A DNA stretch of 32,000 nt, taken from NCBI GenBank assembly GCA_947648905.1, contig CANSPP010000001.1:90230-122229 (forward strand), read 5' to 3'. Shown in pieces: positions 1 to 23,803 of this stretch. Position numbers and translations under genes: made by a program. The first letter of the stretch is position 1. Each line of letters starts with the position of its first letter. Under the pieces are notes generated by a model, which saw nothing but the letters and a program-made list of their open reading frames with translations, was not told where the DNA came from and ran no database searches. Origin of the DNA: an uncultured Clostridium sp. (GTDB lineage: Bacteria > Bacillota > Clostridia > TANB77 > CAG-508).

Positions 1-740
<740 letters not shown>

Positions 741-843
741 ATTACTTCACCTCTTTATCATTCTTTCCAAATTATATCTTTTTAAACAAATTTTCTGCCA
801 ATGAGGTCGGACCTTTTTGACAGAAAAACATCTCTCATTTATC

Positions 844-873: not shown

Positions 874-902
874 TTGACTATAAAACTTAATTGGAGAAAA
901 AT

Positions 903-3900
903 ATGAAAAAGGAAGTATATGAATTAACAAACCCACAGAAGAATATATGGGAACTAGAACAAATAAATGGAGATGGAACACCAATAAATCATATTATGTC
1001 AGTGCTAAAGCTTAACAGAAAATTGGATGAAGATTTATTAGTAAAAACTATGAACAAAATTATCGAAGTAAATGATTCTTTCCATTTAAAATTCATTAAG
1101 GATGGCTCAAATTTATATCAATATGTTGATGAGTATCACTATGTACCTATTGAAACCAAGCACTTTGATACAGATGATATTTCCGTTGCTATTGAAGAAT
1201 ATCAAAATTTAGAGCTTTCATTAAACAAGCTTTTTAGTATTTGCCTAGTTTTCACACCTTGTTCTTCTTATGTTTTATATAAATCACATCATATTATTGC
1301 TGACGCTTGGAGTATGTCCCAAGTTGCTGAGCAAATAAAAGATTTTTATGAGAAATTACAAAGGAATGAGAGTGAAGAGGCTTTCGAAAAACCTAGTTAT
1401 CTTCCTTTTATTAATAGAGAAAAAACTTATTATGAGAGTAATAAGTTTAATATAGATGAACAATTTTGGATTGATTATGTAGCAAATATACCTTCTACAA
1501 AGTTATTTCAAAATTCTGATTACCTAAAAAAGAATGGAAAGCGTTATATTCAGCCACTTGACAGCAATTTATTTACTTCTATTTCTACTTATTGTCAAGA
1601 GAATAAGATTACAGAATATTCTTTCTTTTTAGGAATATTGTCTATTTATTTTAGTAAAATTTATAATTTGCAAAAGGTTACATTTGGTACTCCTTTTTTG
1701 AATCGTCAAAAAAGATTAAAGGAGCTTGAATGCACTGGTATGTTTGTCTCAACTTTACCTTTATTGGTAGAAATTGATAATAATGATACCTTTTTATCTT
1801 TGTGCAAAAAAATATCTTCAACAAATATGTCATTATTCAAACATTCTGGATATCCATATCACAAAATACAAGAAACTTATTGCAATACGGCACAAGACAA
1901 TTCTGGTTTATACGAAATTGGATTTTCTTATCAAATTAATAAACAAGAAAATGCTATGGAAAATAATGATTTAGGCGAATGTAGCTGGCTTTTTTCAGGT
2001 CAACAAAATAATCCCCTTACTATACATCTAACAACTTTAAATAATGACAAAGTCTTAAATTATGACTATTTATTTACCTGTTTTACTGAAGCAGAAATTA
2101 AAAAAATGAATTCATTTATTTTACATATAATTTCTCAAGTGTTAAGAGGAAAGTCAAATCTATCTGATATAACACTTTTAACAGATGAAGATGTTTCAAC
2201 TTTAACTGCTTTTAACTTGACAGGAACTATCGAAAATTCAAATGAAACTGTAGTTTCAATTTTTGATAATATTGTTGCAAAATATCCTGATAATATTGCA
2301 GTTTGCTGTGATAATACAGAAATAACTTATTCTGAATTAAATAAAAAAATAAATAATGTAGCAAAAGCATTAATAAATCTAGGAATTACGAAAAATACAC
2401 CAGTTGCCCTATTTTTAGATAAAAGCATAGAGATGATTATAGCTATGTTTGCTGTTCTAAAGGCTGGTGGTTGTTATGTACCGATTTTACCAGACGAGTC
2501 CGCTTCTAGGATTGAGTATATTTTAAATGATTGTAAACCAAAATGTGTTTTAACGCACAAAAATTATGACACAAAAATTCCAACAAAAGCTATTATTATT
2601 AACCTAGACAACTATGGATTTAATGGTTTTTATGATATTAGCGAAAATAGGCCTTCTCCAGAGGACACAGCCTATATAATTTATACATCTGGCTCTACTG
2701 GTAACCCAAAAGGTACTATGGTAATGCATAAAAATATTGCTGGATTAAGAACTTCAATTGAAAAAGATGCAATTTTAAAATCAACTAGTAAAGATGTATC
2801 TATGTCACTTTTAAAATATTCTTTTGATGCATCTGGAATTGATATTTATAGTTCTTTGCTTTTTGGTGGTAAACTTATTTTAGTAAAGAAAGAAGATGAG
2901 TTAAATCCAGAAAAAGTTATTAGAATTATGGAAAAAGAAAAAGTAACAAGGTCTTTTCTAATTCCAAAATGGGTTGAGCATATTGCCTTACAAGATAAAT
3001 TGTTAGATGCAGATTTATCTTCTCTTAGAATTCTTGGAACTGGTGGCGAGACTCTAAAACCATATATTATAGAGAATTTACTTTCTAAATATAGTAACTT
3101 AAAAGTTCTAAATTTATATGGACCAACAGAAACAACAATGTTTACAACTTATAAAGAAGTAAGCGTTTATGAAATAAAAAATAATCATACTTCAATTGGC
3201 AAACCTATTTATGGCTCTCGACTTTTAGTTATTAATTCTAATTTAGAAGTTATGCCAATTGACACAAAAGGAGAATTAGTAGTTTACGAAGACGAAAATT
3301 CTATACAAAATATTGCTAAGGGATATCTAAACTTGCCAGAAGCAACAGAATCTAGATTTGTGCAAATTTATCATCCTATTTTAGGTAAAACTGTTAAAGC
3401 TTATAGAACAGGTGATATAGCAAAGATTAGTAAAGATTTAGATATTGAATTTATTGGTAGAAATGATGATGTTGTAAAGGTTAATGGAGGATACTTGGTT
3501 GCATTAAACGAAGTTCAAAATAAAATTCAAAAATTACTTGGAAATAATTTTGAGGTATTCCCTGTTGCCATACCATACAAGAATACAAAAGCAATTTACT
3601 TATTCTTAACAAAAAAAGAAAAGAATATCAATTTATATAATATAAAAAATTACATTAACAGTAATATTTCATTTTATATGAAACCTAAAAAAATTATTGA
3701 GCTAGATGACTTTCCTCGTAATTCTTCTGGCAAAATAAATAGAAAAGAGTTAGAAAATTTGGCACTTAACTATTTAGAGAAAAATAATAGTAAACGTATT
3801 GCGCCAAAAACAGATTTAGAAATTGATATTTATAACTATGTAAAAGAGTTAGTTGGAATAGATGAGTTCTCTATAACTGATGATTTAATTGAAGATTTAG

Positions 3901-5162
3901 GAATTGATTCTTTATCTTTAACTGCTATTTATACATATTTAGAAAAATATAATATCTTAATTCAAGATATATACAACAATTCTAATATAAAAGACTTGGC
4001 AAACTTTATTGAAAACAACTCTTCTAGCGAAGCTAAACCAGATTTAACTAATATCGAAAATATTCAAATTTTAAATAATGTAAAAAAATTTGATTTAAGT
4101 ACTGTTCTAATTACTGGGGTTACAGGATTTTTAGGAATTCACTTGTTGAAGAATTTACTTATAAATGAAAAAGTTGAAAAAATTTATTGTATAATAAGGA
4201 ATAAAATTAATTTAAATGGTAAAATTAGATTGCAAAAAATGATTGATTTCTATTTTGCTTCTGATGAAAATCTGTTAAAATTAATTGATAAAAAAGTCAT
4301 CATTTTAAATGGTGACATAACAAAAAACCAATTAGGCTTAGATCAAAATACATATTTTAAAATTAAGGAAGACGTAACTTGCGTTATTAACAGTGCTGCT
4401 AATGTAAAACATTTTGCAAAACCTGGCAAAATTTATATAGATAATGTGCAAAGTGTTATTAATCTAATTGATTTTTGCGAAGATAAAATATCTTTAGCGC
4501 ATATTTCTACTTTATCAATCGCAGGTTATAAAGGTGACTTAACTAAAAATAAAGTTTTTGATGAAAATACTTTGTTTATAAATCAAGAATTTAACAATAA
4601 TCCTTATTTAGTTACTAAATTTGAAGCAGAAAAGGAAATATTAGAGGCAACTTCAAATGGGTTAAACGCTGTTATTTTTAGATTAGGAAATATTATGCCA
4701 AGAGCTAGTGATGGAGTTTTTCAAGAAAATTCTAATCAAAATGTATTTTTGGCTTCACTTAAAGCTATCATTGATAGCAAAGTAGTTGCAAAAGACTTAC
4801 TTGGTTTAAAATTGGAATTTAGTCCTGTTGACGAATGTGCTGATATAATTTTAGGCTTATTAGAAAATAGTTCATCAAATTCTATTTATCACATTTTGAG
4901 TAATAAAGAAATTACTGTAGCTGAATTAAAGACTATTCTTAAATTTTTAAATTGTGATTTATTAGATGTTGATTTAAAAACTTTTATTGAGGAAATGAAA
5001 CAAAATGCAGATGAATATACAAAAGAATATATTTTAGGTACTAATTTAAATACGTATTCTCAAGATATTACTTTATCAAAATTAGAAGAACTTAGTTTAG
5101 ACTGGTCTTCTATTGATATTCATTATATGCAAAAAATTTTAGATATTATTAGAGGGATGTGA
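903..5162 (+). CDS. Single-module nonribosomal peptide synthetase with domain order C-A-T-R (terminal thioester reductase)
   Basis: C domain: HHIIADAW (HHxxxD, codons from 1287). A domain: FDAS (A4), AYIIYTSGSTGNPKG (A3, about 2670-2714), NLYGPTETT (A5), YRTGDIA (A7), GRNDDVVKVNGGY (A8), SSGKINRK (A10). T domain: LGIDSLS (Ser codon about 3909). R domain: ITGVTGFLG Rossmann motif (about 4110-4137) and YLVTK (YxxxK). I prefer the ATG at 903 (SD GGAG 893-896) over the track's TTG at 891. Confidence 0.9.
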   Translation: MKKEVYELTNPQKNIWELEQINGDGTPINHIMSVLKLNRKLDEDLLVKTMNKIIEVNDSFHLKFIKDGSNLYQYVDEYHYVPIETKHFDTDDISVAIEEYQNLELSLNKLFSICLVFTPCSSYVLYKSHHIIADAWSMSQVAEQIKDFYEKLQRNESEEAFEKPSYLPFINREKTYYESNKFNIDEQFWIDYVANIPSTKLFQNSDYLKKNGKRYIQPLDSNLFTSISTYCQENKITEYSFFLGILSIYFSKIYNLQKVTFGTPFLNRQKRLKELECTGMFVSTLPLLVEIDNNDTFLSLCKKISSTNMSLFKHSGYPYHKIQETYCNTAQDNSGLYEIGFSYQINKQENAMENNDLGECSWLFSGQQNNPLTIHLTTLNNDKVLNYDYLFTCFTEAEIKKMNSFILHIISQVLRGKSNLSDITLLTDEDVSTLTAFNLTGTIENSNETVVSIFDNIVAKYPDNIAVCCDNTEITYSELNKKINNVAKALINLGITKNTPVALFLDKSIEMIIAMFAVLKAGGCYVPILPDESASRIEYILNDCKPKCVLTHKNYDTKIPTKAIIINLDNYGFNGFYDISENRPSPEDTAYIIYTSGSTGNPKGTMVMHKNIAGLRTSIEKDAILKSTSKDVSMSLLKYSFDASGIDIYSSLLFGGKLILVKKEDELNPEKVIRIMEKEKVTRSFLIPKWVEHIALQDKLLDADLSSLRILGTGGETLKPYIIENLLSKYSNLKVLNLYGPTETTMFTTYKEVSVYEIKNNHTSIGKPIYGSRLLVINSNLEVMPIDTKGELVVYEDENSIQNIAKGYLNLPEATESRFVQIYHPILGKTVKAYRTGDIAKISKDLDIEFIGRNDDVVKVNGGYLVALNEVQNKIQKLLGNNFEVFPVAIPYKNTKAIYLFLTKKEKNINLYNIKNYINSNISFYMKPKKIIELDDFPRNSSGKINRKELENLALNYLEKNNSKRIAPKTDLEIDIYNYVKELVGIDEFSITDDLIEDLGIDSLSLTAIYTYLEKYNILIQDIYNNSNIKDLANFIENNSSSEAKPDLTNIENIQILNNVKKFDLSTVLITGVTGFLGIHLLKNLLINEKVEKIYCIIRNKINLNGKIRLQKMIDFYFASDENLLKLIDKKVIILNGDITKNQLGLDQNTYFKIKEDVTCVINSAANVKHFAKPGKIYIDNVQSVINLIDFCEDKISLAHISTLSIAGYKGDLTKNKVFDENTLFINQEFNNNPYLVTKFEAEKEILEATSNGLNAVIFRLGNIMPRASDGVFQENSNQNVFLASLKAIIDSKVVAKDLLGLKLEFSPVDECADIILGLLENSSSNSIYHILSNKEITVAELKTILKFLNCDLLDVDLKTFIEEMKQNADEYTKEYILGTNLNTYSQDITLSKLEELSLDWSSIDIHYMQKILDIIRGM

Positions 5163-5166
5163 TATT

Positions 5167-7191
5167 TTGAAAGAGAAATCCACAAAAGAATTAAAAAATT
5201 TTAAATTAAAATTTATAACAATGATTTTGCTTGTTGACTTAATTGCTGTTGTAGTTGTTTACTTTATTATGCCTTTGGTGCAAAATTTCCCGCCACTTTC
5301 CGAGAACTTTGCTTTCCAAAAAGAAGTACAACCACTTACTCATATACAGCAATACACAGTTGTTTATATACTTGGTATATCAGTTCATTTACTTTCTTTT
5401 TCTATATTAATGAAAAGAATATATAAGTATTTGAATAAGCATTACCGTAAAGAACCAATTTCTTATGCAGAAATTAAACAGGTTAGAAAAGATTGTATCA
5501 ATATTCCGTATAAAGTTTTCTTTGTACAAATGGTAACAATTACATCTATTGGAATTCTGTTTAACTTTATAATGCTAGCTTCTGCTTTTGCGATATTAAG
5601 ATTTACATTGATGATTATTGCTATTGCTTCTATCATCTCAATTATTTTGTTAATTGTATCACAGAAATTTTTGTATAGTGTTATTTTAACAACATACGAA
5701 GTCTCTAATAAATACGAAAAAAATATTGGATATAGAATTACTAATTCGCAAAACTTATTGTTCCAAATGGTTCCTTTTATTGCAGTAATATTAATTGTTA
5801 TATCCTTAATTGGATATTCAAAAGCTGTTCAACAAGAAGGATTTTCAACTGGTAACTATTATAGAGCATATATGGAATCAAAAAATATTGCACCATCACA
5901 AGTAAATATGGAAAACTTAAAACAAATTCTATCTACAATACCACTTCAGGACCCATCACATTATTACTTTGTAATTTCACCAAATGACGAGGATATCTAT
6001 GTATCTTCTCCAGATGGAGTTGTTAGTGATTTTGTATTAAGTTATAGAGATTATTTTTATGATGAAACAAATGGCTTTTTATATGAAAAATTTGGTATAG
6101 ATGAACAACTATATGCTATGAAATTAACAGATTTGAATGGTCAAACTTGGTATATCGGTTACAAATATCCTGTTGTGGATATGGATTTACTTGTATACTA
6201 CTTTACACTTATAATTATTTTGCTAGTTATATACTCTGTCTTATTATTAATATGGTCACGTAATATATCTAGTAACTTAATAAAAACAACAAATAGCCTA
6301 AAAAACATTGTAGACACTGAAAATATTGATAAAAATATGATATTGCCAGTTGCATCAAATGACGAATTTGGTGACTTAGCATACTACTACAACAAAATTC
6401 GAGAGTTGACTATAAAAAACATTGAGCAAATTCACGATAACCAAGAAACACTAATGGAAAAAGAACGTCTAGCATCACTAGGACAACTAATAGGTGGAAT
6501 TGCACACAACCTAAAAACACCTATAATGTCAATCTCTGGTGCAGCAGAAGGATTACACGATTTAGTAAAAGAATATGACTCATCAATAGATGACCCAGAA
6601 GTAAACAGTCAAGACCACCACGAAATTGCAAGCGATATGAACACTTGGATTTCTAAAATCAAAACACATACTGAATATATGTCAGACGTTATAACAGCAG
6701 TAAAAGGTCAAGCTGTTAACCTATCAAACGAAGAAGACATATCATTCACAATCGGAGAACTATTAAAAAGAGTAAATATATTAATGAAACACGAGCTTAA
6801 AAACTCTATCACTTATTTAAACATATCTATGCAAACTAACGAAAACCTAGTAATTAGAGGAGATGTTAATAGTTTAGTACAAGTAATAAACAATATGATA
6901 TCCAATGCTATTCAAGCCTATGGCGGAAAAACTGAGCAAAACATAGACCTAATCGTTGAAAAAGACAATAACAACAACTTGGTAATCTCTATAAAAGACT
7001 ATGGACCTGGAATACCTAAAAAGGTCAAAGATAAACTATTTAAAGAAATGATAACAACAAAAGGAAAAAACGGTACAGGACTTGGACTATATATGTCTTA
7101 CTCAACTATTAGAGCACACTTCAATGGAAATATATCTATTGACTCAACCGAGGGCGTAGGCACTACATTTACAATTACTTTACCTTTATAA
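5167..7191 (+). CDS. Multi-TM sensor histidine kinase (HisKA + HATPase_c)
   Basis: About 6 predicted TM helices and a roughly 130-aa loop domain. H-box LIGGIAHNLKTP (His codon 6504-6506). N box NNMISNAIQA, G1 DYGPGI, G2 GTGLGL. The TTG start is 4 nt after the NRPS stop codon (TGA at 5160-5162), with SD GAGGGA 9 nt upstream. The start codon is uncertain; an alternative ATG is at 5221. Confidence 0.85.
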   Translation: MKEKSTKELKNFKLKFITMILLVDLIAVVVVYFIMPLVQNFPPLSENFAFQKEVQPLTHIQQYTVVYILGISVHLLSFSILMKRIYKYLNKHYRKEPISYAEIKQVRKDCINIPYKVFFVQMVTITSIGILFNFIMLASAFAILRFTLMIIAIASIISIILLIVSQKFLYSVILTTYEVSNKYEKNIGYRITNSQNLLFQMVPFIAVILIVISLIGYSKAVQQEGFSTGNYYRAYMESKNIAPSQVNMENLKQILSTIPLQDPSHYYFVISPNDEDIYVSSPDGVVSDFVLSYRDYFYDETNGFLYEKFGIDEQLYAMKLTDLNGQTWYIGYKYPVVDMDLLVYYFTLIIILLVIYSVLLLIWSRNISSNLIKTTNSLKNIVDTENIDKNMILPVASNDEFGDLAYYYNKIRELTIKNIEQIHDNQETLMEKERLASLGQLIGGIAHNLKTPIMSISGAAEGLHDLVKEYDSSIDDPEVNSQDHHEIASDMNTWISKIKTHTEYMSDVITAVKGQAVNLSNEEDISFTIGELLKRVNILMKHELKNSITYLNISMQTNENLVIRGDVNSLVQVINNMISNAIQAYGGKTEQNIDLIVEKDNNNNLVISIKDYGPGIPKKVKDKLFKEMITTKGKNGTGLGLYMSYSTIRAHFNGNISIDSTEGVGTTFTITLPL

Positions 7192-7199
7192 ATTTTTTA

Positions 7200-7253
7200 A
7201 AAAGCAAGCTTTTAAATGATTTTTGTTTAAAATACTTGCTTTTTATTTTTTTT
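7200..7253 (+). terminator. Rho-independent terminator after the kinase gene
   Basis: AAAAGCAAGCTTTTAAA ... TTTAAAATACTTGCTTTT imperfect stem followed by a long T-run (7241-7253). Confidence 0.5.
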
Positions 7254-7264
7254 ATTAATATAAT
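7236..7264 (+). promoter_or_regulatory. Candidate promoter for the response-regulator gene, overlapping the terminator 3' arm
   Basis: TTGCTT (7236-7241), 17-nt spacer, TATAAT (7259-7264). SD AAGAGG precedes the ATG at 7301. Confidence 0.4.
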
Positions 7265-7300
7265 GTAGAAAATACTAAAATTTTATTTAAGAGGTATTCT

Positions 7301-8362
7301 ATGAGAAAAGGATTGCAAAATTTAGAAAATAATGAAAATAAAAACTACAGAATTATAGCCGTTGATGATGAAGAAGGAATTATTGATTCTTTGTCAATCT
7401 TCTTAAAAAGATCTGGTTATGACTTTGTTGGTGCAACTAATCCAGAGCAAGCTATAGAAATGGTAAAAAATGAACATTTTGATTTAATGATATTAGACTT
7501 TATTATGACGCCAATTCATGGAGACCAAGTTGTTGAGGAAATACGTAAATTTGATAAAGAACTTTATATTTTATTGCTAACTGGTCATAAAGATTTAGCT
7601 CCTCCACTAGACACAATCAGAAGACTTGATATTCAAGGTTATTGCGAAAAAAGTGATAAATTTGACCAGCTCTTACTATTGATTGAATCTGGTATTAAAT
7701 CTATAAAACAGATGAATGAAATCAAGAAAATAAATAATGAATTATCTGATACATATGAAAAATTAGAAAAAGCTTATTTAGAAAGTGTTCAAACTTTAAG
7801 ATATACTGTTGAAGCAAAAGATTCTTATACACGTGGTCATTCTGACCGTGTTTCAGAATACTCTGTATTGCTTGGCAAATATTTAAATCTTCCAGAGGAG
7901 ACACTTAATACATTACGTATTGGTGGATTATTCCACGATATTGGAAAAATTGGTGTGCCTGATAGTATTTTACAAAAAGAAAGTAAATTAACTGATGATG
8001 AATATTCTGAGATAAAAAATCACCCTTCAATTGGTGCTCATATATTATCAACTGCAACGATTTTCCACGATATAATTCCAATTGTAAAACATCATCACGA
8101 AAAATATGATGGAACAGGTTATCCAGGAAGGTTACAAGGAGAAAACATTCCTTACTTAGCTAGAATTGCTGCTATTGCAGATAGTTTTGATGCTATGACT
8201 TCTAGAAGAACTTATCGTGACTCTTTGCCTATGGATGTTGTTATTTCAGAGTTTAAAAGATGCAAAGGAACTCAGTTTGACCCTAAATTAGCTGATGTTT
8301 TCTTAGATATTTTAGAAAATCACTTTGATGAAATTAAGGAAATTCAAGAAAAATATAAATAA
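7301..8362 (+). CDS. Response regulator with REC domain and HD-GYP c-di-GMP phosphodiesterase domain (RpfG-like)
   Basis: REC: VDDEEG acidic pocket, phospho-acceptor Asp in LMILDF (codon 7496-7498), LLTGH, GYCEKS. HD-GYP: GHSDRV, FHDIGKIGVPD, HHEKYDGTGYPG. Confidence 0.9.
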   Translation: MRKGLQNLENNENKNYRIIAVDDEEGIIDSLSIFLKRSGYDFVGATNPEQAIEMVKNEHFDLMILDFIMTPIHGDQVVEEIRKFDKELYILLLTGHKDLAPPLDTIRRLDIQGYCEKSDKFDQLLLLIESGIKSIKQMNEIKKINNELSDTYEKLEKAYLESVQTLRYTVEAKDSYTRGHSDRVSEYSVLLGKYLNLPEETLNTLRIGGLFHDIGKIGVPDSILQKESKLTDDEYSEIKNHPSIGAHILSTATIFHDIIPIVKHHHEKYDGTGYPGRLQGENIPYLARIAAIADSFDAMTSRRTYRDSLPMDVVISEFKRCKGTQFDPKLADVFLDILENHFDEIKEIQEKYK

Positions 8363-8365
8363 ACA

Positions 8366-8433
8366 TTTTTGGGACAGACCCAAAATTCATCACCTTTTTA
8401 ATTGATAATGTATTTTAGGTCTGTCCCATTTTT
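8366..8433. repeat. REP/REPIN-like inverted doublet between the convergent regulator and tex genes
   Basis: TTTTTGGGACAGACC (core 8371-8380) and GGTCTGTCCCATTTTT (core 8418-8427) are reverse complements separated by 37 nt. Confidence 0.7.
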
Positions 8434-8440
8434 CATCATA

Positions 8441-10624
8441 TTATACTTTCATAGAAAGTCCAACTTTTTGTCTTTCCATATCTATCTTAATAACTTTAAC
8501 TTTTACAACATCTCCTACTGAAACAATCTCAGATGGATTTTTAATAAATTTGTCACTCATTTCTGAAATATGTACAAGTCCATCGTGTTTTACACCAATA
8601 TCTACAAATGCTCCAAAGTCTATTACATTTCTAACTGTTCCTGTTAATATCATTCCTTCTTTTAAGTCTTCTAGTTTTAAAACATCGCTTCTTAAAACTG
8701 GTTTTGGCATATCTTCACGTGGGTCTCTTCCTGGCTTGTTAAGTTCTGCTATAATGTCTGTTAATGTCATTTCTCCTATTTCTAGTTCTTTTGCTGTTTT
8801 GGCAATGTCTATATGTTTTAGTTTATTTCTTAAGTCTTCTAATTTTTCCTTATTTTTTAGGTCGTTTACGTCAAAGCCTATTTCTTTAAGTAATTTTTCT
8901 GTCGCTTCATAACTTTCAGGGTGAACTGCTGTTATTTCTAATGGATTGTCTCCATCAAATATTCTTAGGAACCCTGCGCATTGCTCATATGCTACTTTCC
9001 CTAATTTTGGTACTTTTAGTAATTGCTTTCTATTTTTAAGTTTTCCATTTTCGTCTCTATATTTTACAATATTTTTAGCTATTGTGTTGTTAATTCCTGC
9101 TACATATGAAAGTAGTGATGGTGTTGCAGTATTTACATCTACTCCAACTTTATTAACGCTGTCTTCCACTACGCCTGTTAAACTTTCAGCTAATCTTTTT
9201 TGATTTACGTCGTGTTGATATTGTCCAACTCCAATTGCTTTTGGGTCAATTTTAACCAATTCTGCTAATGGGTCTTGTAATCTTCTTGCTATTGATATTG
9301 CTCCTCTTATTGATACATTTATGTCTGGATATTCTTCTGTTGCAAGCTTAGATGCTGAATAAACTGATGCTCCTGCTTCGCTTACAATTACATAGCATAC
9401 ATCTCTTTTGGTTTCTTTTAACATATCTGCAACAAACATTTCTGATTCTCTAGAAGCTGTACCGTTTCCTATTGCTATCATATCGATTTTATGTTTTTCT
9501 ATTAATTTTAAAAGTTCCTTTTTAGCGTTTTCAACATCATTTTGTGGCGCTGTTGGGTATACAGTTGTATAGTCTAAAACTTTTCCAGTTTCATCTATAA
9601 CAGCAATTTTACATCCTGTTCTATAAGCAGGGTCAAATCCCATAACTGTTTTACCTTTTATTGGAGCTCCTAATAATAATTGTTTTGAATTTTGACCAAA
9701 TACTTTAATTGCCTTTTCTTCTGCTTTTTCAGTTAAATCTGAACGAATTTCTCTTTCAATTGAAGGTTCAATTAATCTTTTAAAACTATCTTCAATCGTT
9801 GTTCTTAACATATCTGTAAATTGTGTTTCTCCCTTGATAACATCTCTTTCAATATATTTTAAGATTTTCTCTTCAGGCTTTTCTAATTTAACTTTTAAGA
9901 AATCTTCCTTTTCTCCACGGTTTATCGCTAAAATTCTGTGGCTTGGTATGTATTTAATTGCTTCTTTATATTCATAATACATTTCATAATTAGATTTTGC
10001 TTCTGGGTCTGCTGCTTTAGTTTCAACTAAACCTTCTCTATAACATTGTCTTTTAATTTCTTTTCTATATTTAGCATTATCAGAGATATTTTCTGCAATA
10101 ATATCTAAAGCACCTGCAATCGCATCTTCCGCAGTCGCTACGACCTTATCCTTATTCTTTTTATCTTCTTCTGATAATTTATCAATATTTACATACTCTT
10201 TAGCAATTTCATAAATATCTCTTGTTTCTTTTTGCTCAATTATAATATTAGCAAGTGGCTCTAACCCCTTAGCTTTAGCAACAGTCGCTCTTGTCTTTTT
10301 CTTTTGCTTGTAAGGTCTATAAATATCCTCTACTTCCGCTAGAGTTTTGCTAAGAGCAACCGCTTTTAAAATTTCATCTGTTAGCTTTCCTTGCTCATCA
10401 ATAGAATTAATAACTTCCTCTTTTCTCTTCTCTAAATTTCTTAGGTATGCTAGCCTGTCGCCTAATTCCCTAAGAGTCTCATCACTTAATCCTCCAGTTA
10501 CTTCTTTTCTATATCTTGCAATAAAAGGTATTGTATTGCCTTCATCAATTAATTTTATTGTATTTTCTACTTGATTCTCTCTTATCTTTAGTTCTTCTGC
10601 TATTGTTTTTATAATTTTATCCAT
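8441..10624 (-). CDS. tex: Tex-like transcription accessory protein (S1 RNA-binding domain at the C-terminus)
   Basis: 727 aa. N-terminus IAEELKIRENQVENTIKLIDEGNTIPFIARYRKE. YqgF/RuvX-like core VMGFDPAYRTGCK, HhH region, C-terminal S1 domain GTVRNVIDFGAFVDIG...GLVHISE. Confidence 0.9.
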   Translation of the reverse strand: MDKIIKTIAEELKIRENQVENTIKLIDEGNTIPFIARYRKEVTGGLSDETLRELGDRLAYLRNLEKRKEEVINSIDEQGKLTDEILKAVALSKTLAEVEDIYRPYKQKKKTRATVAKAKGLEPLANIIIEQKETRDIYEIAKEYVNIDKLSEEDKKNKDKVVATAEDAIAGALDIIAENISDNAKYRKEIKRQCYREGLVETKAADPEAKSNYEMYYEYKEAIKYIPSHRILAINRGEKEDFLKVKLEKPEEKILKYIERDVIKGETQFTDMLRTTIEDSFKRLIEPSIEREIRSDLTEKAEEKAIKVFGQNSKQLLLGAPIKGKTVMGFDPAYRTGCKIAVIDETGKVLDYTTVYPTAPQNDVENAKKELLKLIEKHKIDMIAIGNGTASRESEMFVADMLKETKRDVCYVIVSEAGASVYSASKLATEEYPDINVSIRGAISIARRLQDPLAELVKIDPKAIGVGQYQHDVNQKRLAESLTGVVEDSVNKVGVDVNTATPSLLSYVAGINNTIAKNIVKYRDENGKLKNRKQLLKVPKLGKVAYEQCAGFLRIFDGDNPLEITAVHPESYEATEKLLKEIGFDVNDLKNKEKLEDLRNKLKHIDIAKTAKELEIGEMTLTDIIAELNKPGRDPREDMPKPVLRSDVLKLEDLKEGMILTGTVRNVIDFGAFVDIGVKHDGLVHISEMSDKFIKNPSEIVSVGDVVKVKVIKIDMERQKVGLSMKV

Positions 10625-10647
10625 ATTTAATTTCCTTTCTTTTAAAC

Positions 10648-10684
10648 TTTTTGGGACAGGCCAAAAAAGTTTTGGACATTTTTT
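10648..10684 (+). repeat. REP-like repeat copy flanking the 3' side of the Y1 transposase gene
   Basis: TTTTTGGGACAGGCCAAAAAAGTTTTGGACATTTT (core 10653-10662). It contains the small palindrome CCAAAA-AAG-TTTTGG. It would lie in the tex 5' leader if the promoter at 10714-10741 is real. Confidence 0.7.
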
Positions 10685-10713
10685 ATATTTTTAACTTGTT
10701 TGGTTACTGTCTT

Positions 10714-10741
10714 ATTATATCTTATTTTTTGCAAATTTCAA
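10714..10741 (-). promoter_or_regulatory. Candidate sigma-A promoter for tex
   Basis: On the minus strand: TTGAAA (10741-10736), 16-nt spacer, TATAAT (10719-10714). Confidence 0.45.
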
Positions 10742-10744
10742 GTT

Positions 10745-11506
10745 TTAGATTTCTTTTTTCATAATTTTTTGCATTGAATTTTTAGTCATTTCAAAATATT
10801 CTCTTATAGCTACATATTTTATACTTTTATTATTTTTTAAATATTCTATTAGTTCTTTTAAAATTTGTTTGTTACTAAAAATTTCATATAATTTGCATTC
10901 TTTAATTCTTACAAATTCTTGTATTGATAACAAAATCTTCTCTTTGATGTCATTATCTACATCTAAAAAAGTTATGTTATACTCTATATTTTTGCATATA
11001 TTTTCGTAGTCTTCTTTTGATAATTCTTCTATGAATTTATTTTGAATTAAACTTCTGCAAAAATAGTTGTATGATGAATACTTATAATCTTTACAATTGT
11101 CTACTATTTTCGCTTTTACTGGATTAAAATGAATATACTTAATACATTGAATTAAATATCTTTTTGTTGTAATTGGTTCACTCAGAAATCTATCTCTATA
11201 AACGTGACCAACACGTCCTTCTTCCATATAATTATAATACGCTGCATAACTAAAATTTATTTGATGCATAAATTTTGATAATTCTTCAATTTTTTCTACT
11301 TTGATTAGAAAATGTGCATGGTTGTTCATAATACAAAATGCTATTATTTTAATTTGATATTTTCCTAAATATTTTTTTATTATTTCTATGTATTTTTTTA
11401 TATTTTTTTTCTTTTGAAATATATATTCCTTTCTATGTCCCTGTATTATAACATGAAAAAAGGAACTATTTAAATTATCTCTTGCAATTCTTGGAATTGT
11501 AATCAT
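10745..11506 (-). CDS. Y1 HUH tyrosine transposase of the IS200-like / REP-associated (RayT-like) type, with a C-terminal helical extension
   Basis: FFHVIIQGHRKEYIF (YHV..RG block). HUH motif MNNHAHFLI (plus-strand 11312-11320). RDRFLSEP. Catalytic Tyr block KYIHFNPVKAKIV (Tyr codon about 11135-11137). KYSSYNYF. At 253 aa it is longer than typical IS200 TnpA, as I recall it (about 130-150 aa). GGAG abuts the ATG, so initiation context is poor. Confidence 0.8.
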   Translation of the reverse strand: MITIPRIARDNLNSSFFHVIIQGHRKEYIFQKKKNIKKYIEIIKKYLGKYQIKIIAFCIMNNHAHFLIKVEKIEELSKFMHQINFSYAAYYNYMEEGRVGHVYRDRFLSEPITTKRYLIQCIKYIHFNPVKAKIVDNCKDYKYSSYNYFCRSLIQNKFIEELSKEDYENICKNIEYNITFLDVDNDIKEKILLSIQEFVRIKECKLYEIFSNKQILKELIEYLKNNKSIKYVAIREYFEMTKNSMQKIMKKEI

Positions 11507-11540
11507 CTCCTTTTTTATTTAGCCCCTATTTTTATATTTT

Positions 11541-11573
11541 TATCCAAAACTTTTTTGCATGTCCCAAAACGTC
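11541..11573 (-). repeat. REP-like repeat copy flanking the 5' side of the Y1 transposase gene, inverted relative to 10648-10684
   Basis: The reverse complement reads GACGTTTTGGGACATGCAAAAAAGTTTTGGATA. It matches the 10648-10684 copy except for GGCC versus TGC and one C/T change. It abuts the stop codon of the HTH gene. Confidence 0.7.
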
Positions 11574-11812
11574 TATTTTATTTTATTTGGAATATAGTCT
11601 ATAATATCTGTTATTGTGCATTCCAAATAGTCACATAATCTTGCTATCACAAATATATCAAACCTCACTAATTCCCCTGTTATTATACGTTTTAAAACTT
11701 TAAAATCTGTATTTGTATCTCTCATCAACTTATTTATGCTGATTTTCCTATCTTTCAATAAATCTTCTAACTTAAATAGATATACTCCCTTTTCTATATT
11801 TACCCTAATCAT
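11573..11812 (-). CDS. Small XRE/YozG-like helix-turn-helix transcriptional regulator
   Basis: 79 aa. LEDLLKDRKISINKLMRDTNTDFKVLKRIITGE...IARLCDYLECTITDIIDY fits the short HTH family usually paired with a small membrane protein. SD GGAGA lies 6 nt upstream of the ATG. Confidence 0.8.
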   Translation of the reverse strand: MIRVNIEKGVYLFKLEDLLKDRKISINKLMRDTNTDFKVLKRIITGELVRFDIFVIARLCDYLECTITDIIDYIPNKIK

Positions 11813-11860
11813 ATTTTATCTCCTAAAAATATAAATAAATTATATATTTTTATTGGATAC

Positions 11861-11889
11861 TTGACTATTGGTTATATAACCAGTATAAT
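11861..11889 (+). promoter_or_regulatory. Consensus promoter with an embedded palindromic operator, driving the small membrane-protein gene
   Basis: TTGACT (11861-11866), 17-nt spacer, TATAAT (11884-11889). The spacer contains the perfect 14-bp palindrome TGGTTATATAACCA (11869-11882). Confidence 0.6.
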
Positions 11890-11953
11890 AACTATAGCAT
11901 TAATTATATTTGCTTATTTTATTAATTTTTTACAAATGAAAGGGGGATTCACA

Positions 11954-12265
11954 ATGAATGAAGATAAAGCTTTTAGCAATGCTAAATGGTTTGCTATAGG
12001 ATTACTTGTTTTGGCTATAATTGTTTTAATTTTTAATTTTGTAGCTTCTCCAAGTCAAAATATTATTAAAATTGTATCATACAGCATTCAAATTATTCTG
12101 TTGTTAGCAACTGCTATTGGATGTGGCAAAAAAATGATATATGGTCCTGTTTGTGGAATTGTTGTTTCTATTTTGTTAATAATTTCACTTGACATAATTT
12201 CTTTGATTTTTGGTATACTTTATTTAATTGATTGTATAAAATTAGTTAAATTTATAAAAAATTAA
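11954..12265 (+). CDS. Small integral membrane protein (about 4 TM helices), divergent partner of the HTH regulator
   Basis: SD AGGGGG (11941-11946) lies 7 nt upstream of the ATG at 11954. The track's TTG at 11861 coincides with the -35 box, so the long form is unlikely. The sequence is hydrophobic throughout. Confidence 0.6.
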   Translation: MNEDKAFSNAKWFAIGLLVLAIIVLIFNFVASPSQNIIKIVSYSIQIILLLATAIGCGKKMIYGPVCGIVVSILLIISLDIISLIFGILYLIDCIKLVKFIKN

Positions 12266-12293
12266 AAATTTTGATTTAAATTTTTTGGTAAAT

Positions 12294-12350
12294 TTTTTGG
12301 GACAGGCCAGAAACGTCCGCTAATAAAACTTTTTTGGTCTGTCCCAAAAA
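12294..12350. repeat. REP/REPIN-like inverted doublet between the convergent membrane-protein and ABC-F genes
   Basis: TTTTTTGGGACAGGCC (core 12299-12308) and GGTCTGTCCCAAAAA (core 12336-12345) are separated by 27 nt. The spacer carries GAAACGTCC, the reverse complement of the GGACGTTTC module seen at 14012 and 19882. Confidence 0.7.
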
Positions 12351-12364
12351 TGCTCCAAAAATGT

Positions 12365-13948
12365 TTACTCAACTCCCAAGTATTCGTTATATGAAACTTC
12401 TCTATCCACAACCGTTCCATCTTCTTTAATATCAATTATTCTGTTTGCAACAGTTTGTGTTAGTTCGTGGTCATGTGATGTAAATAAGATATTTCCTATA
12501 AATTTTTTCATTCCTTCGTTTACTGATGTGATACTCTCCATATCTAGGTGGTTTGTTGGTTCATCAAAGATTAAGAAATTTGCTCCTGATAGCATCATTT
12601 TTGATAATACACATCTTACCTTTTCTCCTCCTGATAGCACTTTTACTTCTTTTAATGCTTCATCTCCAGAGAATAGCATTCTTCCTAAAAAGCTTCTTAC
12701 ATATGTTTCATCTGGGTCTTTTGAGTATTTTCTTAGCCATTCTGTTACATTTTCATCTGTTTCAAATAAATAGTTGTTGTCTTTTGGGAAGTAGTTTTGA
12801 GTAATTGTTGTTCCCCATACTAATTCTCCTTCGTCTGGTTCAATTTCTCCTGCTATTATTTGAAATAATACTGTTTTTGCAAGTTCATTATCTGCTAAAA
12901 ACGCTATTTTGTTTCCTTCTTTTACATCAAATGATATATTATCTAATAGTTTTACTCCATCAACTGTTTTTGATATATTTTTTACTTGTAGTATTTCTCT
13001 TCCTGGCTCTCTATCTGGCTTGAAGTCCACATATGGATATTTTCTATTTGATGGTTTTATTTCGTCTAACTCTATTTTTTCTAATGTTTTCTTTCTTGAT
13101 GTTGCTTGTTTTGATTTTGAAGCATTTGCACTAAATCTTGCAATAAAGTCTTGTAATTCTTTAATTTTTTCTTCTTTCTTCTTGTTTTGTTCTCTTGCTT
13201 GTTTTAAAGCTAATTGGCTTGATTCATACCAGAAATCATAATTTCCTGGATATACTTTAATCTTTCCGAAGTCAACATCAGCAATATGTGTACAAACTTT
13301 GTTTAAGAAATATCTATCGTGTGATACAACTATTACAGTATTTTCGAAATCCATTAAAAAGTCTTGCAACCAGTTAATGCTCTTTAAGTCTAAATCGTTT
13401 GTAGGTTCATCTAATAAAAGCACATCTGGATTTCCAAATAAACTTTGTGCCAATAAAACTTTTACTTTGTCCCTTGCTTCAATTTCTTTCATATATTTAT
13501 AATGATTTTCTGGAATAATTCCTAAGTCATTTAAAAGTATTGCTGCATCTGACTCTGCATTCCATCCATCTAATTCTGCAAATCTTTCTTCTAATTTTGC
13601 AGCCTTCATACCATCTTCTTCTGAAAAATCAGGTTTTGCATATATAGCTTCTTTTTCTTTCATTATGTCATATAACTCTTTATTTCCCATAATTACTGTA
13701 TCAATTACTGTATAATCTTCATAAGCAAAGTGGTCTTGTTTTAGAACTGATAGTCTTTCTCCTTTATCTATAGAAACATCACCTTTGCTTGGTTCAATCT
13801 CTCCTGATAAAACCTTTAGAAAAGTTGACTTTCCTGCTCCATTCGCTCCTATTATTCCATAGCAGTTTCCTTTTCCAAATCTTATATTTACATCTTCAAA
13901 TAAAACTCTTTTTCCAAATCTAACTGTAACATTGTTTGCACTTAACAT
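12365..13948 (-). CDS. ABC-F family ATPase (soluble, two NBDs plus linker; YbiT/YkpA-like by length and layout)
   Basis: NBD1 Walker A GANGAGKST and Walker B LLLDEPTNDLD. ABC-F linker FIARFSANASKSKQATSRKK. NBD2 signature LSGGEK and Walker B LIFDEPTNHLD. No TM segments. SD GGAGG lies 7 nt upstream of the ATG. Confidence 0.9.
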   Translation of the reverse strand: MLSANNVTVRFGKRVLFEDVNIRFGKGNCYGIIGANGAGKSTFLKVLSGEIEPSKGDVSIDKGERLSVLKQDHFAYEDYTVIDTVIMGNKELYDIMKEKEAIYAKPDFSEEDGMKAAKLEERFAELDGWNAESDAAILLNDLGIIPENHYKYMKEIEARDKVKVLLAQSLFGNPDVLLLDEPTNDLDLKSINWLQDFLMDFENTVIVVSHDRYFLNKVCTHIADVDFGKIKVYPGNYDFWYESSQLALKQAREQNKKKEEKIKELQDFIARFSANASKSKQATSRKKTLEKIELDEIKPSNRKYPYVDFKPDREPGREILQVKNISKTVDGVKLLDNISFDVKEGNKIAFLADNELAKTVLFQIIAGEIEPDEGELVWGTTITQNYFPKDNNYLFETDENVTEWLRKYSKDPDETYVRSFLGRMLFSGDEALKEVKVLSGGEKVRCVLSKMMLSGANFLIFDEPTNHLDMESITSVNEGMKKFIGNILFTSHDHELTQTVANRIIDIKEDGTVVDREVSYNEYLGVE

Positions 13949-13972
13949 TACTCTTCCTCCTTAACTTTTGGT

Positions 13973-14001
13973 ATTATACACTATTTTTCCTTATTTTTCA
14001 A
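13973..14001 (-). promoter_or_regulatory. Sigma-A promoter for the ABC-F gene
   Basis: On the minus strand: TTGAAA (14001-13996), 17-nt spacer, TATAAT (13978-13973). Confidence 0.5.
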
Positions 14002-14040
14002 GTGTCCAATTGGGGACGTTTCTTTCTTGGACATTTTTAA
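14002..14040. repeat. Composite repeat-family module (TGTCCAA / GGGGACGTTTC / TTGGACA hairpin)
   Basis: TGTCCAA (14004-14010) and TTGGACA (14028-14034) are inverted and enclose GGGGACGTTTC (14012-22). The TTGGACATTTTT tail matches the 10648-10684 copy. Confidence 0.5.
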
Positions 14041-14085
14041 TGGAGGCTTTTGAGTGACAAATCAAAAAATATTTATAAGTGGTGC

Positions 14086-14106
14086 ATTTTAGGTCTGTCC
14101 CAAAAA
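14086..14106 (-). repeat. Single REP-like copy in the ABC-F/capA divergent spacer
   Basis: ATTTTAGGTCTGTCCCA (core 14092-14101) is identical over 17 nt to the copy at 8412-8428. Confidence 0.65.
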
Positions 14107-14170
14107 ATCTTACTTGAATTTTGTCGAATTTTGTGATATTTTGTTATTATAAAAAATGGGGTGATTTATT

Positions 14171-19385: not shown

Positions 19386-19862
19386 ATGGAGTTAACAAAG
19401 AATATATTCTTTAACACAGACAAATTAGTAGAAAACAGTAAAGTAAAAATCTCATATATCGGAGAGCTTTTTAAAAATGCCTCTGAAGAAGTAACCATAC
19501 ATTATGGCTTTGGTAACAATTGGGACAATGTAACAGATATAAAAATGGAAAAAACAGAATTAGGATTTCAAGCTGAAATAAATTTATTAGAAGGCGAAAC
19601 ATTCAACTTCTGCTTCAAAGATGGAAACAACAATTGGGACAACAACAATGGTCAAAACTACGTATTTCCATTAGAAAAAGTCACTACAGAATTACTAGTA
19701 TTAGATGATGAACCTGTAGCTCTTGGTAGTGCTAGAAAGCTAAGAAGATCTTATTTATGGAGCAAAAAAATTCGTTTAGCAGTTTATAAAATAATAACAT
19801 ATCTTCCAAAAATAATCTCTGGAAATTATAGAACGAAACAAGCAAATACAGATAACGGATAA
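19386..19862 (+). CDS. Small protein with a starch/glycan-binding-module-like domain (CBM25/26-type W..NN.G.NY signature) and a basic amphipathic tail
   Basis: IHYGFGNNWDNV ... FCFKDGNNNWDNNNGQNYVF resembles CBM repeats. The call rests on motif recall only. Confidence 0.45.
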   Translation: MELTKNIFFNTDKLVENSKVKISYIGELFKNASEEVTIHYGFGNNWDNVTDIKMEKTELGFQAEINLLEGETFNFCFKDGNNNWDNNNGQNYVFPLEKVTTELLVLDDEPVALGSARKLRRSYLWSKKIRLAVYKIITYLPKIISGNYRTKQANTDNG

Positions 19863-19899
19863 AAAACGCCCCAGGACATTTGGGGACGTTTCTTTTTTT
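19861..19899. terminator. Bidirectional terminator between convergent CBM-like and SDR genes, built from repeat-family modules
   Basis: AAAAAACGCCCCA / TGGGGACGTTTCTTTTTTT: 10-bp stem with one bulge, 7-nt loop GGACATT, and an A-run and T-run on the flanks. Confidence 0.65.
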
Positions 19900-20751: not shown

Positions 20752-20828
20752 TGGAGCCACTTCCCAGATTCGAACTGGGGACCCCCGCATTACAAGTGCG
20801 GTGCTCTGGCCAACTGAGCTAAAGTGGC
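20752..20828 (-). tRNA. tRNA-Thr (anticodon TGT), CCA encoded
   Basis: The reverse complement GCCACTTTAGCTCAGTTGGCCAGAGCACCGCACTTGTAATGCGGGGGTCCCCAGTTCGAATCTGGGAAGTGGCTCCA folds as a cloverleaf with anticodon loop CTTGTAA. Confidence 0.9.
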
Positions 20829-20840
20829 AATTATTTAATT

Positions 20841-20915
20841 TGGTGACCCGTACGGGAATCGAACCCATGTCTCCGCCGTGAAAGGGCGGTGTCTTAACCG
20901 CTTGACCAACGGGCC
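20841..20915 (-). tRNA. tRNA-Glu (anticodon TTC), CCA encoded
   Basis: The reverse complement GGCCCGTTGGTCAAGCGGTTAAGACACCGCCCTTTCACGGCGG... has anticodon loop CTTTCAC and T loop TTCGATT. Confidence 0.9.
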
Positions 20916-20923
20916 TTATATAT

Positions 20924-20958
20924 AAAGAACTAAATAATGTTGCATTATTTAGTTCTTT
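20924..20958 (-). other. Perfect 16-bp hairpin in the tRNA-Lys/tRNA-Glu spacer
   Basis: AAAGAACTAAATAATG (20924-39), loop TTG, CATTATTTAGTTCTTT (20943-58). Confidence 0.6.
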
Positions 20959-21034
20959 TGGTGAGCTATCCGCGACTCGAACGCGGGACAACTTGATTAA
21001 AAGTCAAGTGCTCTACCACCTGAGCTAATAGCCC
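20959..21034 (-). tRNA. tRNA-Lys (anticodon TTT), CCA encoded
   Basis: The reverse complement GGGCTATTAGCTCAGGTGGTAGAGCACTTGACTTTTAATCAAGTTGTCCCGCGTTCGAGTCGCGGATAGCTCACCA has anticodon loop CTTTTAA. Confidence 0.9.
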
Positions 21035-21064
21035 ACATAACTGTGATACTCACAACGCCTTTAT

Positions 21065-21093
21065 ATATTACAACATTTTTTCACAAATGTCAA
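21065..21093 (-). promoter_or_regulatory. Sigma-A promoter of the tRNA-Lys/Glu/Thr operon
   Basis: On the minus strand: TTGACA (21093-21088), 17-nt spacer, TAATAT (21070-21065), about 30 nt upstream of the tRNA-Lys 5' end. Confidence 0.55.
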
Positions 21094-21109
21094 TACATTT
21101 GTGAAAAAA
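21076..21109. terminator. Bidirectional terminator-like hairpin downstream of the DUF1858 gene
   Basis: TTTTTTCACAAATGT (21076-90), loop CAAT, ACATTTGTGAAAAAA (21095-109): perfect 15-bp stem flanked by T and A runs. Confidence 0.6.
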
Positions 21110-21139
21110 AAATTGAACTTTTTGTGTTTTTTGTGTTTT

Positions 21140-23794: not shown

Positions 23795-23803
23795 GAGGTA
23801 ACT

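Follow-up and report, generated by a model that had tools for sequence, protein, structure and literature searches.

This study concerns a 32-kb window of genomic DNA from an uncultured Clostridium sp. (contig CANSPP010000001.1, positions 90,230 to 122,229; "the window" denotes this whole stretch), in which a first-pass annotation had described a family of GC-rich intergenic repeats with the core GGGACAGRCC and had likened them to repetitive extragenic palindromic (REP) elements and their inverted doublets (REPINs). Our analysis indicates that the interval bearing these repeats, 8366 to 14106, is probably the home locus (a "REPtron," or "TIRtron" if the units are described as terminal inverted repeats, TIRs) of a REP-like family together with its cognate single-strand DNA transposase. 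It is very probable that the locus is the home cluster of a REP-associated tyrosine transposase (RAYT) of the subclass 2.1 type, also called a TIR-associated tyrosine transposase (TIRYT), with its cognate hairpin repeats, and we lean toward the view, argued by analogy with E. coli TnpA-REP and the IS608 and ISDra2 TnpA proteins, that this enzyme mobilizes the units. The REP/REPIN reading of the first-pass annotation gained support from a RAYT-type gene in the middle of the interval with inverted copies on either side, from homologues of this gene that carry hairpins of their own, and from dispersal of the repeat in a congeneric genome.

Clustering of the repeat copies in the window

A pattern search recovered six exact matches to GGGACAGRCC in the window (8371+, 8418−, 10653+, 12299+, 12336−, and 14092−). 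The expected count was 0.01, and none of 100 dinucleotide-preserving shuffles contained six, in agreement with the initial estimate that far fewer than one copy would arise by chance. The variant GGGACATGC at 11557–11565(−), which the annotation had listed as a seventh copy, was likewise recovered when TTTTGGGACAGRCC was used as the query with three mismatches allowed. All seven copies were located outside open reading frames (ORFs), as had been claimed. Of the six successive spacers from 8363 to 14170, five contained copies, and the 19 spacers elsewhere in the window contained none (P ~1e-4, hypergeometric estimate). Since the copies are confined to neighboring spacers, they cluster around one gene. 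The description of the family as "dispersed" therefore failed within the window, where all copies sit at one locus, and held for the congeneric genome described below. The structural claims of the annotation also proved accurate, namely a 17-nt identity (ATTTTAGGTCTGTCCCA) between 8412–8428 and 14086–14102, the doublet gaps, and the T-run 5′ and A-run 3′ of the core; the long hairpins envisaged for the two doublets were obtained by folding (Table 1).

A RAYT-type transposase gene within the cluster

The interval contains a transposase gene, 10745–11506(−), that was absent from the first-pass annotation. The best NCBIfam model for its product was REP_Tyr_transpos (75.5 bits), while the IS200 model reached 20.6 bits (cutoff, 55). 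A search of the Protein Data Bank (PDB) with the single transposase sequence returned nothing; with a profile of 37 homologues, E. coli TnpA-REP (4ER8) was the best PDB match (E 8.6e-5), in an alignment that spanned the HUH (histidine–hydrophobic–histidine) region and the YI..NPVK motif. In a Foldseek search with an AlphaFold2 model of the protein (predicted local distance difference test score, 85.8), the top match was again 4ER8_A (E 7.7e-6; template-modeling score 0.70, normalized to the target), followed by the IS608 and ISDra2 TnpA proteins. His-63 and His-65 (in an NHAH motif), Tyr-124, Asn-128, and Pro-129 were invariant across the 37 homologues, and Ser-144 and Ser-145 were at least 90% conserved. 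According to the model, residues 146–249 form an extra helical C-terminal domain, and the C-termini of several homologues gave weak matches to the helix–turn–helix (HTH) families HTH_24, HTH_11, and HTH_26. Judged by motifs and predicted fold, the protein is a Y1/HUH enzyme of the RAYT kind, with an N-terminal domain for which catalysis is predicted and an HTH-like C-terminal domain.

The transposase gene is flanked by the inverted units 10653(+) and 11557(−), which share a 30-nt arm, TTTTGGGACAKGC(C)AAAAAAGTTTTGGAYA. Separately, a motif RGGGGCWAAAT was observed ~20–30 nt upstream of the start codon in five of six homologues (window 11520–11535; L183, L185, L187, and L191), and may represent either a promoter element or a site of autoregulation. 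A scan of viral contigs with a 20-mer of the repeat gave no match, and comparison of the transposase protein with plasmids and phages gave distant, partial matches only; the system is not phage- or plasmid-borne.

Homologous loci carry hairpins of their own

The protein belongs to a large family, with 1135 matches at E <1e-5, many of them on contigs of ~1 kb. The homologues usually occur on such short contigs because short-read assemblies are interrupted at the repeats to either side of the gene, and this breakage probably explains why the association between gene and repeats has been overlooked in metagenome-assembled genomes. Logan contigs end in repeat units on both sides of the transposase gene (L001–L010, L136–L140, L190, and L191). 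Those arriving from the two sides of window 10644–10672 terminate inside that unit, which suggests that it is multi-copy in the Logan samples, mixed samples being an alternative.

We fetched the surroundings of five homologues that were 51–84% identical to the window protein (L183, L185, L187, L189, and L191). All five were flanked by hairpin repeats of their own type (Table 1). These repeats keep the GGGAC core, and their stems differ and change in a compensatory way. The four homologues with 51–60% identity (L183, L185, L187, and L189) follow an ABC-F gene, as in the window; the next gene is annotated as Tex in L183, L185, and L187, and that of L189 is cut at the contig end and carries no annotation. 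In the former three loci, Tex and ABC-F were 75–91% and 84–96% identical to their window counterparts, and the transposase only 51–55%. The spacer between Tex and the neighboring regulator gene also had a counterpart: in L185 and L187, it contained an inverted doublet of the locus's own repeat variant, as in the window, and in L183, one unit and a separate classical terminator. None of the fetched loci contained a second transposase copy.

Across 13 units from nine loci, the stem positions were paired in 95.7% of cells, compared with 55–66% in slid controls, although the units had been picked by eye as palindromic, which inflates the paired fraction. Changes on both sides were found at five of the nine stem pairs (22 cells), a level that none of 500 shuffles reached. 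Together, these results point to selection on a hairpin with a variable but compensating stem, a T-run and an A-run, and a conserved apical GGGAC(A/G)G, and show that each transposase is associated with its own repeat variant between species.

Two further features of these loci were observed. The spacer between the ABC-F and transposase genes is a variable slot bounded by repeat units (window 11573–12265; L186 251–697; L189 4416–4697). In the window, an HTH_26 gene and a small membrane ORF occupy it; L186 and L189 have a dCMP-deaminase-like gene there, and in L183 and L187 the slot is empty. The HTH_26 gene of the window adjoins the transposase gene. On the other side, a large nonribosomal peptide synthetase-like gene (Condensation, AMP-binding, PP-binding, and reductase domains), a histidine kinase gene, and an HD-GYP response regulator gene lie beside Tex in the same order in the window (891–8362), L183, L185, and L187.

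Dispersal of the repeat in a congeneric organism

A metagenome scan with the 20-mer TTTTTGGGACAGRCCAAAAA as the query returned 41 stretches, nearly all of them located on 12 long contigs that came from three Joint Genome Institute (JGI) metagenomes. These 12 contigs (1.55 Mb) contained 53 exact matches, or ~1 per 30 kb, some of which represent the same organism sampled twice; the chance expectation estimated from base composition was ~1e-5. One locus of this organism, L152, was ~85% identical in DNA sequence to window 1–1636, so the organism is a close, probably congeneric, relative. The flanks of another, L162, were identical to L084, a GTDB species-representative metagenome-assembled genome labeled "uncultured Clostridia bacterium." A scan of a genome collection (596 Gb) with the 15-mer TTTTTGGGACAGRCC yielded mostly chance singletons from unrelated phyla, as this pattern was too short; the real relatives among the matches listed were L017, L043, L084, and L091, labeled Clostridia or Clostridium.

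The 313 kb fetched from this relative contained 114 units in 62 clusters: 23 singlets, 16 convergent doublets, 12 tandem pairs, and several clusters of three or four units resembling bacterial interspersed mosaic elements (BIMEs). A core spacing of 27 nt was modal (19 adjacent convergent pairs) and is the same as that of the window pair 12299/12336; the window doublet 12292–12350 aligned at 85–91% identity to more than 15 loci of the relative. Tandem pairs had a period of ~36–37 nt, and tandem arrays comprised two to four units. Alignment of the copies, which the first-pass annotation had proposed as a way of defining element boundaries, placed the singlet boundaries sharply at 29 nt, and many copies were identical over these 29 nt (consensus, AAACTTTTTGGGACAGGCCAAAAAAGTTT).

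The proposed tabulation of coding versus intergenic copies, performed in the relative, showed strong depletion from ORFs: 41% of the units fell under a deliberately generous and crude ORF mask that covered 86% of the DNA (P 6e-29), and most of these "in-ORF" units lay in over-extended gene starts or unsupported ORFs of 100–130 aa, or were matches without repeat flanks. The spacers with clusters comprised 32 co-directional, six divergent, and six convergent ones. Comparison of occupancy at orthologous spacers, also proposed at the outset, succeeded in part. One spacer differed, L152 having a three-unit cluster and window 787–859 none (a degenerate hairpin of another family lies there instead), and this difference is between species rather than strains; the other matches in the search for occupied and empty sites were the same strain sampled twice or had paralogous flanks. 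A tblastn search of the 313 kb of repeat-rich metagenome loci found no copy of the transposase.

Architecture and position of the individual units

The repeat unit is a hairpin of ~29 nt with the consensus AAACTTTTTGGGACAGGCCAAAAAAGTTT, in which the T-run pairs with the A-run, a few outer base pairs vary, and the conserved GGGAC(A/G)G motif lies at the top. The tetranucleotide foot GTAG/GTGG was absent from this consensus and from all variants; conservation is apical. The window copies differ from one another outside the core. Rfam searches found no family at gathering thresholds and only sub-threshold microRNA-hairpin look-alikes, and a search of a collection of papers for the repeat sequence returned nothing relevant. 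The two doublets and the two units beside the transposase gene were folded as single-stranded DNA (Table 1).

The unit on the 3′ side of the transposase gene is identical to the 29-nt singlet consensus of the relatives and is placed directly upstream of the Tex ribosome-binding site, with a promoter-like site (10741..10714) on its other side. The unit on the 5′ side has two mismatches to TTTTGGGACAGRCC, and its alignment with the 10653 copy runs through AAAAAAGTTTTGGA. Of the doublets, one lies between the convergent 3′ ends of the small membrane ORF and the ABC-F gene and the other between the convergent response regulator (RR-HD-GYP) and Tex genes; the latter is followed by ATTTTT on the plus strand and may serve as a terminator of the regulator transcript. 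The single unit at the right end of the interval is situated between the divergently oriented ABC-F and PGA_cap genes.

Table 1. The transposase gene, the repeat units, and related hairpins (window coordinates; homologous loci by handle)
Feature	Position	Strand	Details
RAYT-type Y1/HUH tyrosine transposase gene, 253 aa	10745..11506	-	Pfam Y1_Tnp, E 3e-12
REP unit, 3′ side of transposase gene	10644..10678	+	AAACTTTTTGGGACAGGCCAAAAAAGTTT plus TTGGACA; hairpin -7.3 kcal/mol
Degenerate REP unit, 5′ side of transposase gene	11542..11570	-	GTTTTGGGACATGCAAAAAAGTTTTGGATA; inverted relative to 10644-10678
Inverted doublet, REPIN-like, units 27 nt apart	12290..12352	-	hairpin -16.2 kcal/mol, z -4.5
Inverted doublet, units 37 nt apart	8366..8433	.	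hairpin -14.3 kcal/mol, z -4.6
Single REP unit	14086..14107	-	TTTTTTGGGACAGACCTAAAAT; 17 nt identical to 8412-8428
Truncated "family D" repeat copy	14003..14038	+	TGTCCATTGGGGACGTTTCCTTTTGGACA...; matches first ~35 nt of a ~55-nt element
Degenerate "family C" hairpin, core GGGGACGGACC	791..828	+	in window spacer 741-890
Repeat core of the window	window		core GGGACAGGCC
Flanking hairpin of transposase homologue	L183		GGGTGTTTTTGGGGACGGGGCAAAAAAACACCC; core GGGGACGGGGC
Flanking hairpin of transposase homologue	L187		ACCTGTTTTTGGGGACGGAGCAAAAAAACAGGT; core GGGGACGGAGC
Flanking hairpin of transposase homologue	L185		CCATGATTTTGGGGACGGAGGAAAAAATCATGG; core GGGGACGGAGG
Flanking hairpin of transposase homologue	L189		GCGATGTTTTTTGGGACGGGGTCAAAAAACATCGC; core GGGACGGGGTC
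Flanking hairpin of transposase homologue	L191		GAAACTTTTTGGGACAGGGCAAAAAAGTTTC; core GGGACAGGGC/GGTC

Related repeat families and neighboring features

Several other hairpin families were observed beside the main one. The truncated family D copy of the window adjoins the 14092 unit and lies just upstream of a promoter-like site of the ABC-F gene. The complete element, of ~55 nt (TGTCCATTGGGGACGTTTCCTTTTGGACATTTTGTCCATTTTGGGACACATC), occurred in 13 copies in the fetched relatives (L043, L142, L146, L151, L153, L154, L158, L159, L164, L167, L170, and L175), often beside main-family units, and a similar sequence, AGGACATTTGGGGACGTTTC, is present at 19873–19893 in a terminator-like hairpin that follows the ORF 19386–19862. 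Family C (ATTGCCAnnGGGGACGGACCTTTTTGGCAAT) was found in three copies each in L043 (741–817) and L084 (4290–4366); the three-unit main-family cluster of L152 (4003–4085) occupies the spacer orthologous to that of the family C hairpin in the window. A fourth variant, GGGTGTTTTTGGGGACAGWCCTTAAAAACACCC, formed inverted pairs ~60 nt apart and thereby very long hairpins (L166, −41 kcal/mol, z −11); it was detected in L161, L164, L166, L173, L175, L177, L180, and L043. Since this variant lies beside the others, one genome carries several families with a GGGAC core.

Elsewhere in the window, three adjacent tRNA genes (20755–21034, minus strand) are followed by TraG/TrwB-like, DnaB_2, and IstB-like genes, and the region 20755–27056 looks like an integrated mobile element. 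The longest inverted repeat of the window (82 nt, 74% complementary; 15524–15605/20958–21039) consists of two similar tRNA genes on opposite strands. To the left of the window, strains differ in their mobile-element content (L136 vs L137 vs L141).

Mobility of the units and alternative explanations

By analogy with E. coli TnpA-REP and the TnpA proteins of IS608 and ISDra2, the enzyme would bind the hairpin in single-stranded DNA, such as the lagging-strand template, and would cut and rejoin it through the HUH metal site and Tyr-124. Such cutting and rejoining would excise units, insert them at new intergenic sites, and renew the copies around the enzyme's own gene. It is plausible that some copies would in turn gain host-level side effects, such as termination of the regulator transcript by 8366–8433 or a role of 10644–10678 in the Tex 5′ leader. 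The mode of recognition probably differs from that in E. coli, because the GT[AG]G foot is missing, the Trp residue in the GTAG-recognizing region of the E. coli enzyme aligns with Phe or Tyr, and conservation of the DNA motif lies at the apex; a contribution of the extra HTH-like domain is possible.

Several observations weigh against a mobile REP-like family with its cognate enzyme. The GT[AG]G guide tetranucleotide is absent, and the recognition mode is therefore not transferable from the E. coli structure. The REP_Tyr_transpos score lies just under the curated cutoff of 80, and the principal survey of RAYT-type genes found no REP-like structures beside subclass 2.1 genes (PMC6006769). The 5′-side unit, 11542–11570, is degenerate and barely folds (−1.9 kcal/mol). 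The 26 kb of the window that lie beyond the 5.7-kb cluster have no unit at all, and ~16 kb of additional strain DNA adds only one (L141 10281). The orthologous-site difference is a single one, between species, and the covariation units were chosen by eye, as stated above.

Among the alternatives, the one that fares best is that the locus is a relic, in which the transposase is either inactive or serves the host in some other task on single-stranded DNA, and the repeats, spread long ago and now decaying, persist by descent and gene conversion only. The fixed syntenic slot of the gene across species would be expected of such a relic, as would the lack of a second gene copy in any fetched locus, the degenerate 5′ unit, the divergence of window copies outside the core, and the weak or absent repeat association of Group 1 and subclass 2.1 enzymes in previous work (PMC5581495, PMC6006769). 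We nevertheless regard it as unlikely: the catalytic residues are invariant in the 37 homologues, down to 46% identity, and in the relative many copies share all 29 nt and have sharp boundaries. Moreover, the repeats of a species match the variant adjacent to its own transposase even where the neighboring housekeeping proteins are 89–96% identical, and recent turnover is therefore required.

It is still less likely that the hairpins are host regulatory or structural elements (terminators, mRNA-stabilizing stem-loops, or leaders) kept by site-wise selection, with the proximity of the transposase being incidental. Position speaks for this possibility, since both window doublets lie between convergent 3′ ends, the Tex–regulator doublet keeps its place in L185 and L187, and the transposase-adjacent unit abuts the Tex ribosome-binding site in every homologue fetched with its downstream gene; in addition, the 8366–8433 doublet precedes ATTTTT on the plus strand, and a small terminator-like hairpin was flagged at 8385–8367. 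The geometry is the reverse of that of a terminator, however, in the singlets and in the 12294–12350 doublet, where a T-run precedes and an A-run follows the stem on both strands, so the annotation was right to deny this doublet a terminator function. In L183, a classical terminator distinct from the unit occupies the same spacer, the clusters of the relative are spread over 32 co-directional, six divergent, and six convergent spacers, tandem arrays of two to four units with a 36–37-nt period would be unexpected for terminators, and from species to species the repeat sequence and the transposase change in concert. As for intrinsic terminators specifically, these were rejected because an A-run follows the stem and a terminator scan flagged two sites in the interval, the same level as in shuffled sequence, with 8366–8433 as the exception.

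A similarly small probability attaches to the idea that the core is a double-stranded site for a dimeric DNA-binding protein, such as the HTH-like domain of the transposase, the HTH_26 protein, or a nucleoid protein, and that the copies form a regulon or a structuring motif. Some cores are indeed perfect palindromes (TTTTGGGAC-A-GTCCCAAAA; the GGGACAGTCCC variants exactly so), and both the family D element and the vicinity of the ABC-F promoter contain recurring GGGAC motifs phased at ~10 nt. The HTH_26 gene next to the transposase gene and the weak HTH matches in the C-termini of several homologues would supply candidate proteins. On the other hand, the most common core, GGGACAGGCC, is non-palindromic while the outer stems covary, a pattern indicative of a folded single strand. 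The HTH_26 gene is missing from the L183, L185, L187, and L189 loci, where the repeats are still present, and dozens of copies between co-directional or convergent genes or in tandem arrays do not resemble an operator set. Double-strand binding is partly compatible with a mobile family and its cognate transposase, in that the HTH domain may help targeting.

The remaining candidates were rejected. A composite transposon with 44-nt inverted arms (8350–8393 and 14079–14122) would enclose Tex and ABC-F, two conserved housekeeping genes whose order is maintained in relatives. The tandem clusters are not a CRISPR array, as they contain only two to four units and their 26–28-nt "spacers" are themselves conserved (AAAAAAGTTTCRCTCGCGGACGTTTT). 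A DDE-type miniature inverted-repeat transposable element was ruled out on anatomy, and an IS200/IS605 element by the Y...NP motif, the IS200 score below its cutoff, the lack of a second copy in any fetched locus, and that of a tnpB-like neighbor.

Comparison with known systems

REPIN–RAYT systems have been studied as long-lived, vertically inherited replicators within genomes. To our knowledge, nearly all detailed work has been conducted on Proteobacteria, mainly Pseudomonas and enterobacteria, and such systems have hardly been described in low-GC gut Clostridia. The group that the present enzyme matches is the largest and least understood of the RAYT groups; its members have an HTH tail and have been described as lacking REPs. 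The locus thus offers a compact, testable REPIN–RAYT example from an uncultured lineage of low-GC gut Clostridia, and the five homologues with different cognate hairpins, four of them at the same chromosomal slot, form a natural specificity series. A bolder proposal, which we consider possible rather than probable, is that a vertically inherited, fixed-locus RAYT of the subclass 2.1 type drives a true REP/REPIN/BIME-like population, that recognition occurs through the apical GGGAC and the covarying stem and perhaps the HTH domain, and that the enzyme and its repeats switch specificity together far faster than the surrounding housekeeping genes diverge (identity of 51–55% for the transposase as against 89–96% for Tex and ABC-F). 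If true, this would be the first worked REPIN–RAYT system in Firmicutes and would overturn the view that subclass 2.1 is without REP partners.

The system shares with the canonical REP/REPIN–RAYT systems of Enterobacteria and Pseudomonas (Groups 2 and 3) short extragenic palindromes (in many copies in the congeneric organism), inverted doublets that fold into long hairpins, and BIME-like clusters, as well as a chromosomal Y1/HUH gene with inverted flanking units, as in a canonical REPtron; in both, the repeat varies together with the enzyme between species. It differs in that the GT[AG]G foot of canonical REPs (subclasses 2.2, 2.4, 2.5, 2.7, and 2.8) is missing, with conservation at the apex instead, the stems are rich in AT (T-run/A-run) rather than GC, and singlets and tandem pairs occur as frequently as inverted doublets. 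Compared with E. coli TnpA-REP, the window enzyme has an extra C-terminal domain of ~100 aa, and Trp-94, in the region that recognizes GTAG, aligns with Phe or Tyr in the window family. Unlike the Group 4 and 5 RAYTs, which are reported to evolve slowly in a housekeeping-like manner, the transposase diverges much faster than its neighbors.

The fold, HUH/Y1, is also that of the IS200/IS605 transposases (subclass 1.1), to which recognition of subterminal hairpins on single-stranded DNA is likewise ascribed. The window protein, however, has Y...NP rather than Y...Q and no tnpB-like gene beside it, no identical multi-copy genes were found in the fetched loci, and the gene occupies a fixed chromosomal position.

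By its motifs and repeat core, the system matches most closely the class variously named TIRYT, TnpA-Y1 subclass 2.1, and Group 1 RAYT; subclass 2.1 has been equated both with Group 1 of Bertels et al. and with Di Nocera's TIRYTs (PMC6006769). Subclass 2.1 is characterized by NH[VYF]H, Y[IV]HLNP or YIELNP, SS, a C-terminal HTH, and a median length of ~238 aa (PMC6006769, Table 1). The window protein has NHAH (NHVH, NHGH, and NHTH also occur in homologues), YIHFNP, and Y-S-S-Y at 143–146; its length of 253 aa is near the median, and the C-terminal extension is HTH-like in both. The W motif differs, being Y/F-R in the window protein and W[EQ]/FQ in the subclass. The inverted repeats that flank TIRYT genes share GGGGWSAS, and some TIRs form moderately abundant families with dimers or clusters (PMC3733652). 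Judged from the congeneric organism, the repeat described here is likewise a moderately abundant family of singles, dimers, and clusters, in which related copies (L043 and L166; GGGGACAG) fit the TIRYT motif at 8/8 positions, and window copies (TGGGACAG, tGGGACAG) and those of L183, L185, and L187 (GGGGACGG) at 7/8.

Group 1 RAYTs are known from Clostridia, with flanking 16-mers of modest frequency (PMC5581495), and Group 1 or subclass 2.1 enzymes have been found weakly or not associated with repeats (PMC5581495, PMC6006769). In comparison, the present repeats are REP-like self-complementary hairpins with covarying stems and sharp 29-nt boundaries, and the gene sits in one syntenic slot, whereas Group 1 and subclass 2.1.2 are reported to show a patchy distribution, signs of horizontal transfer, and occasional plasmid location. 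The kind of system is thus already known; what is new is the lineage, the clear hairpin nature of the repeats, and the fixed syntenic locus.

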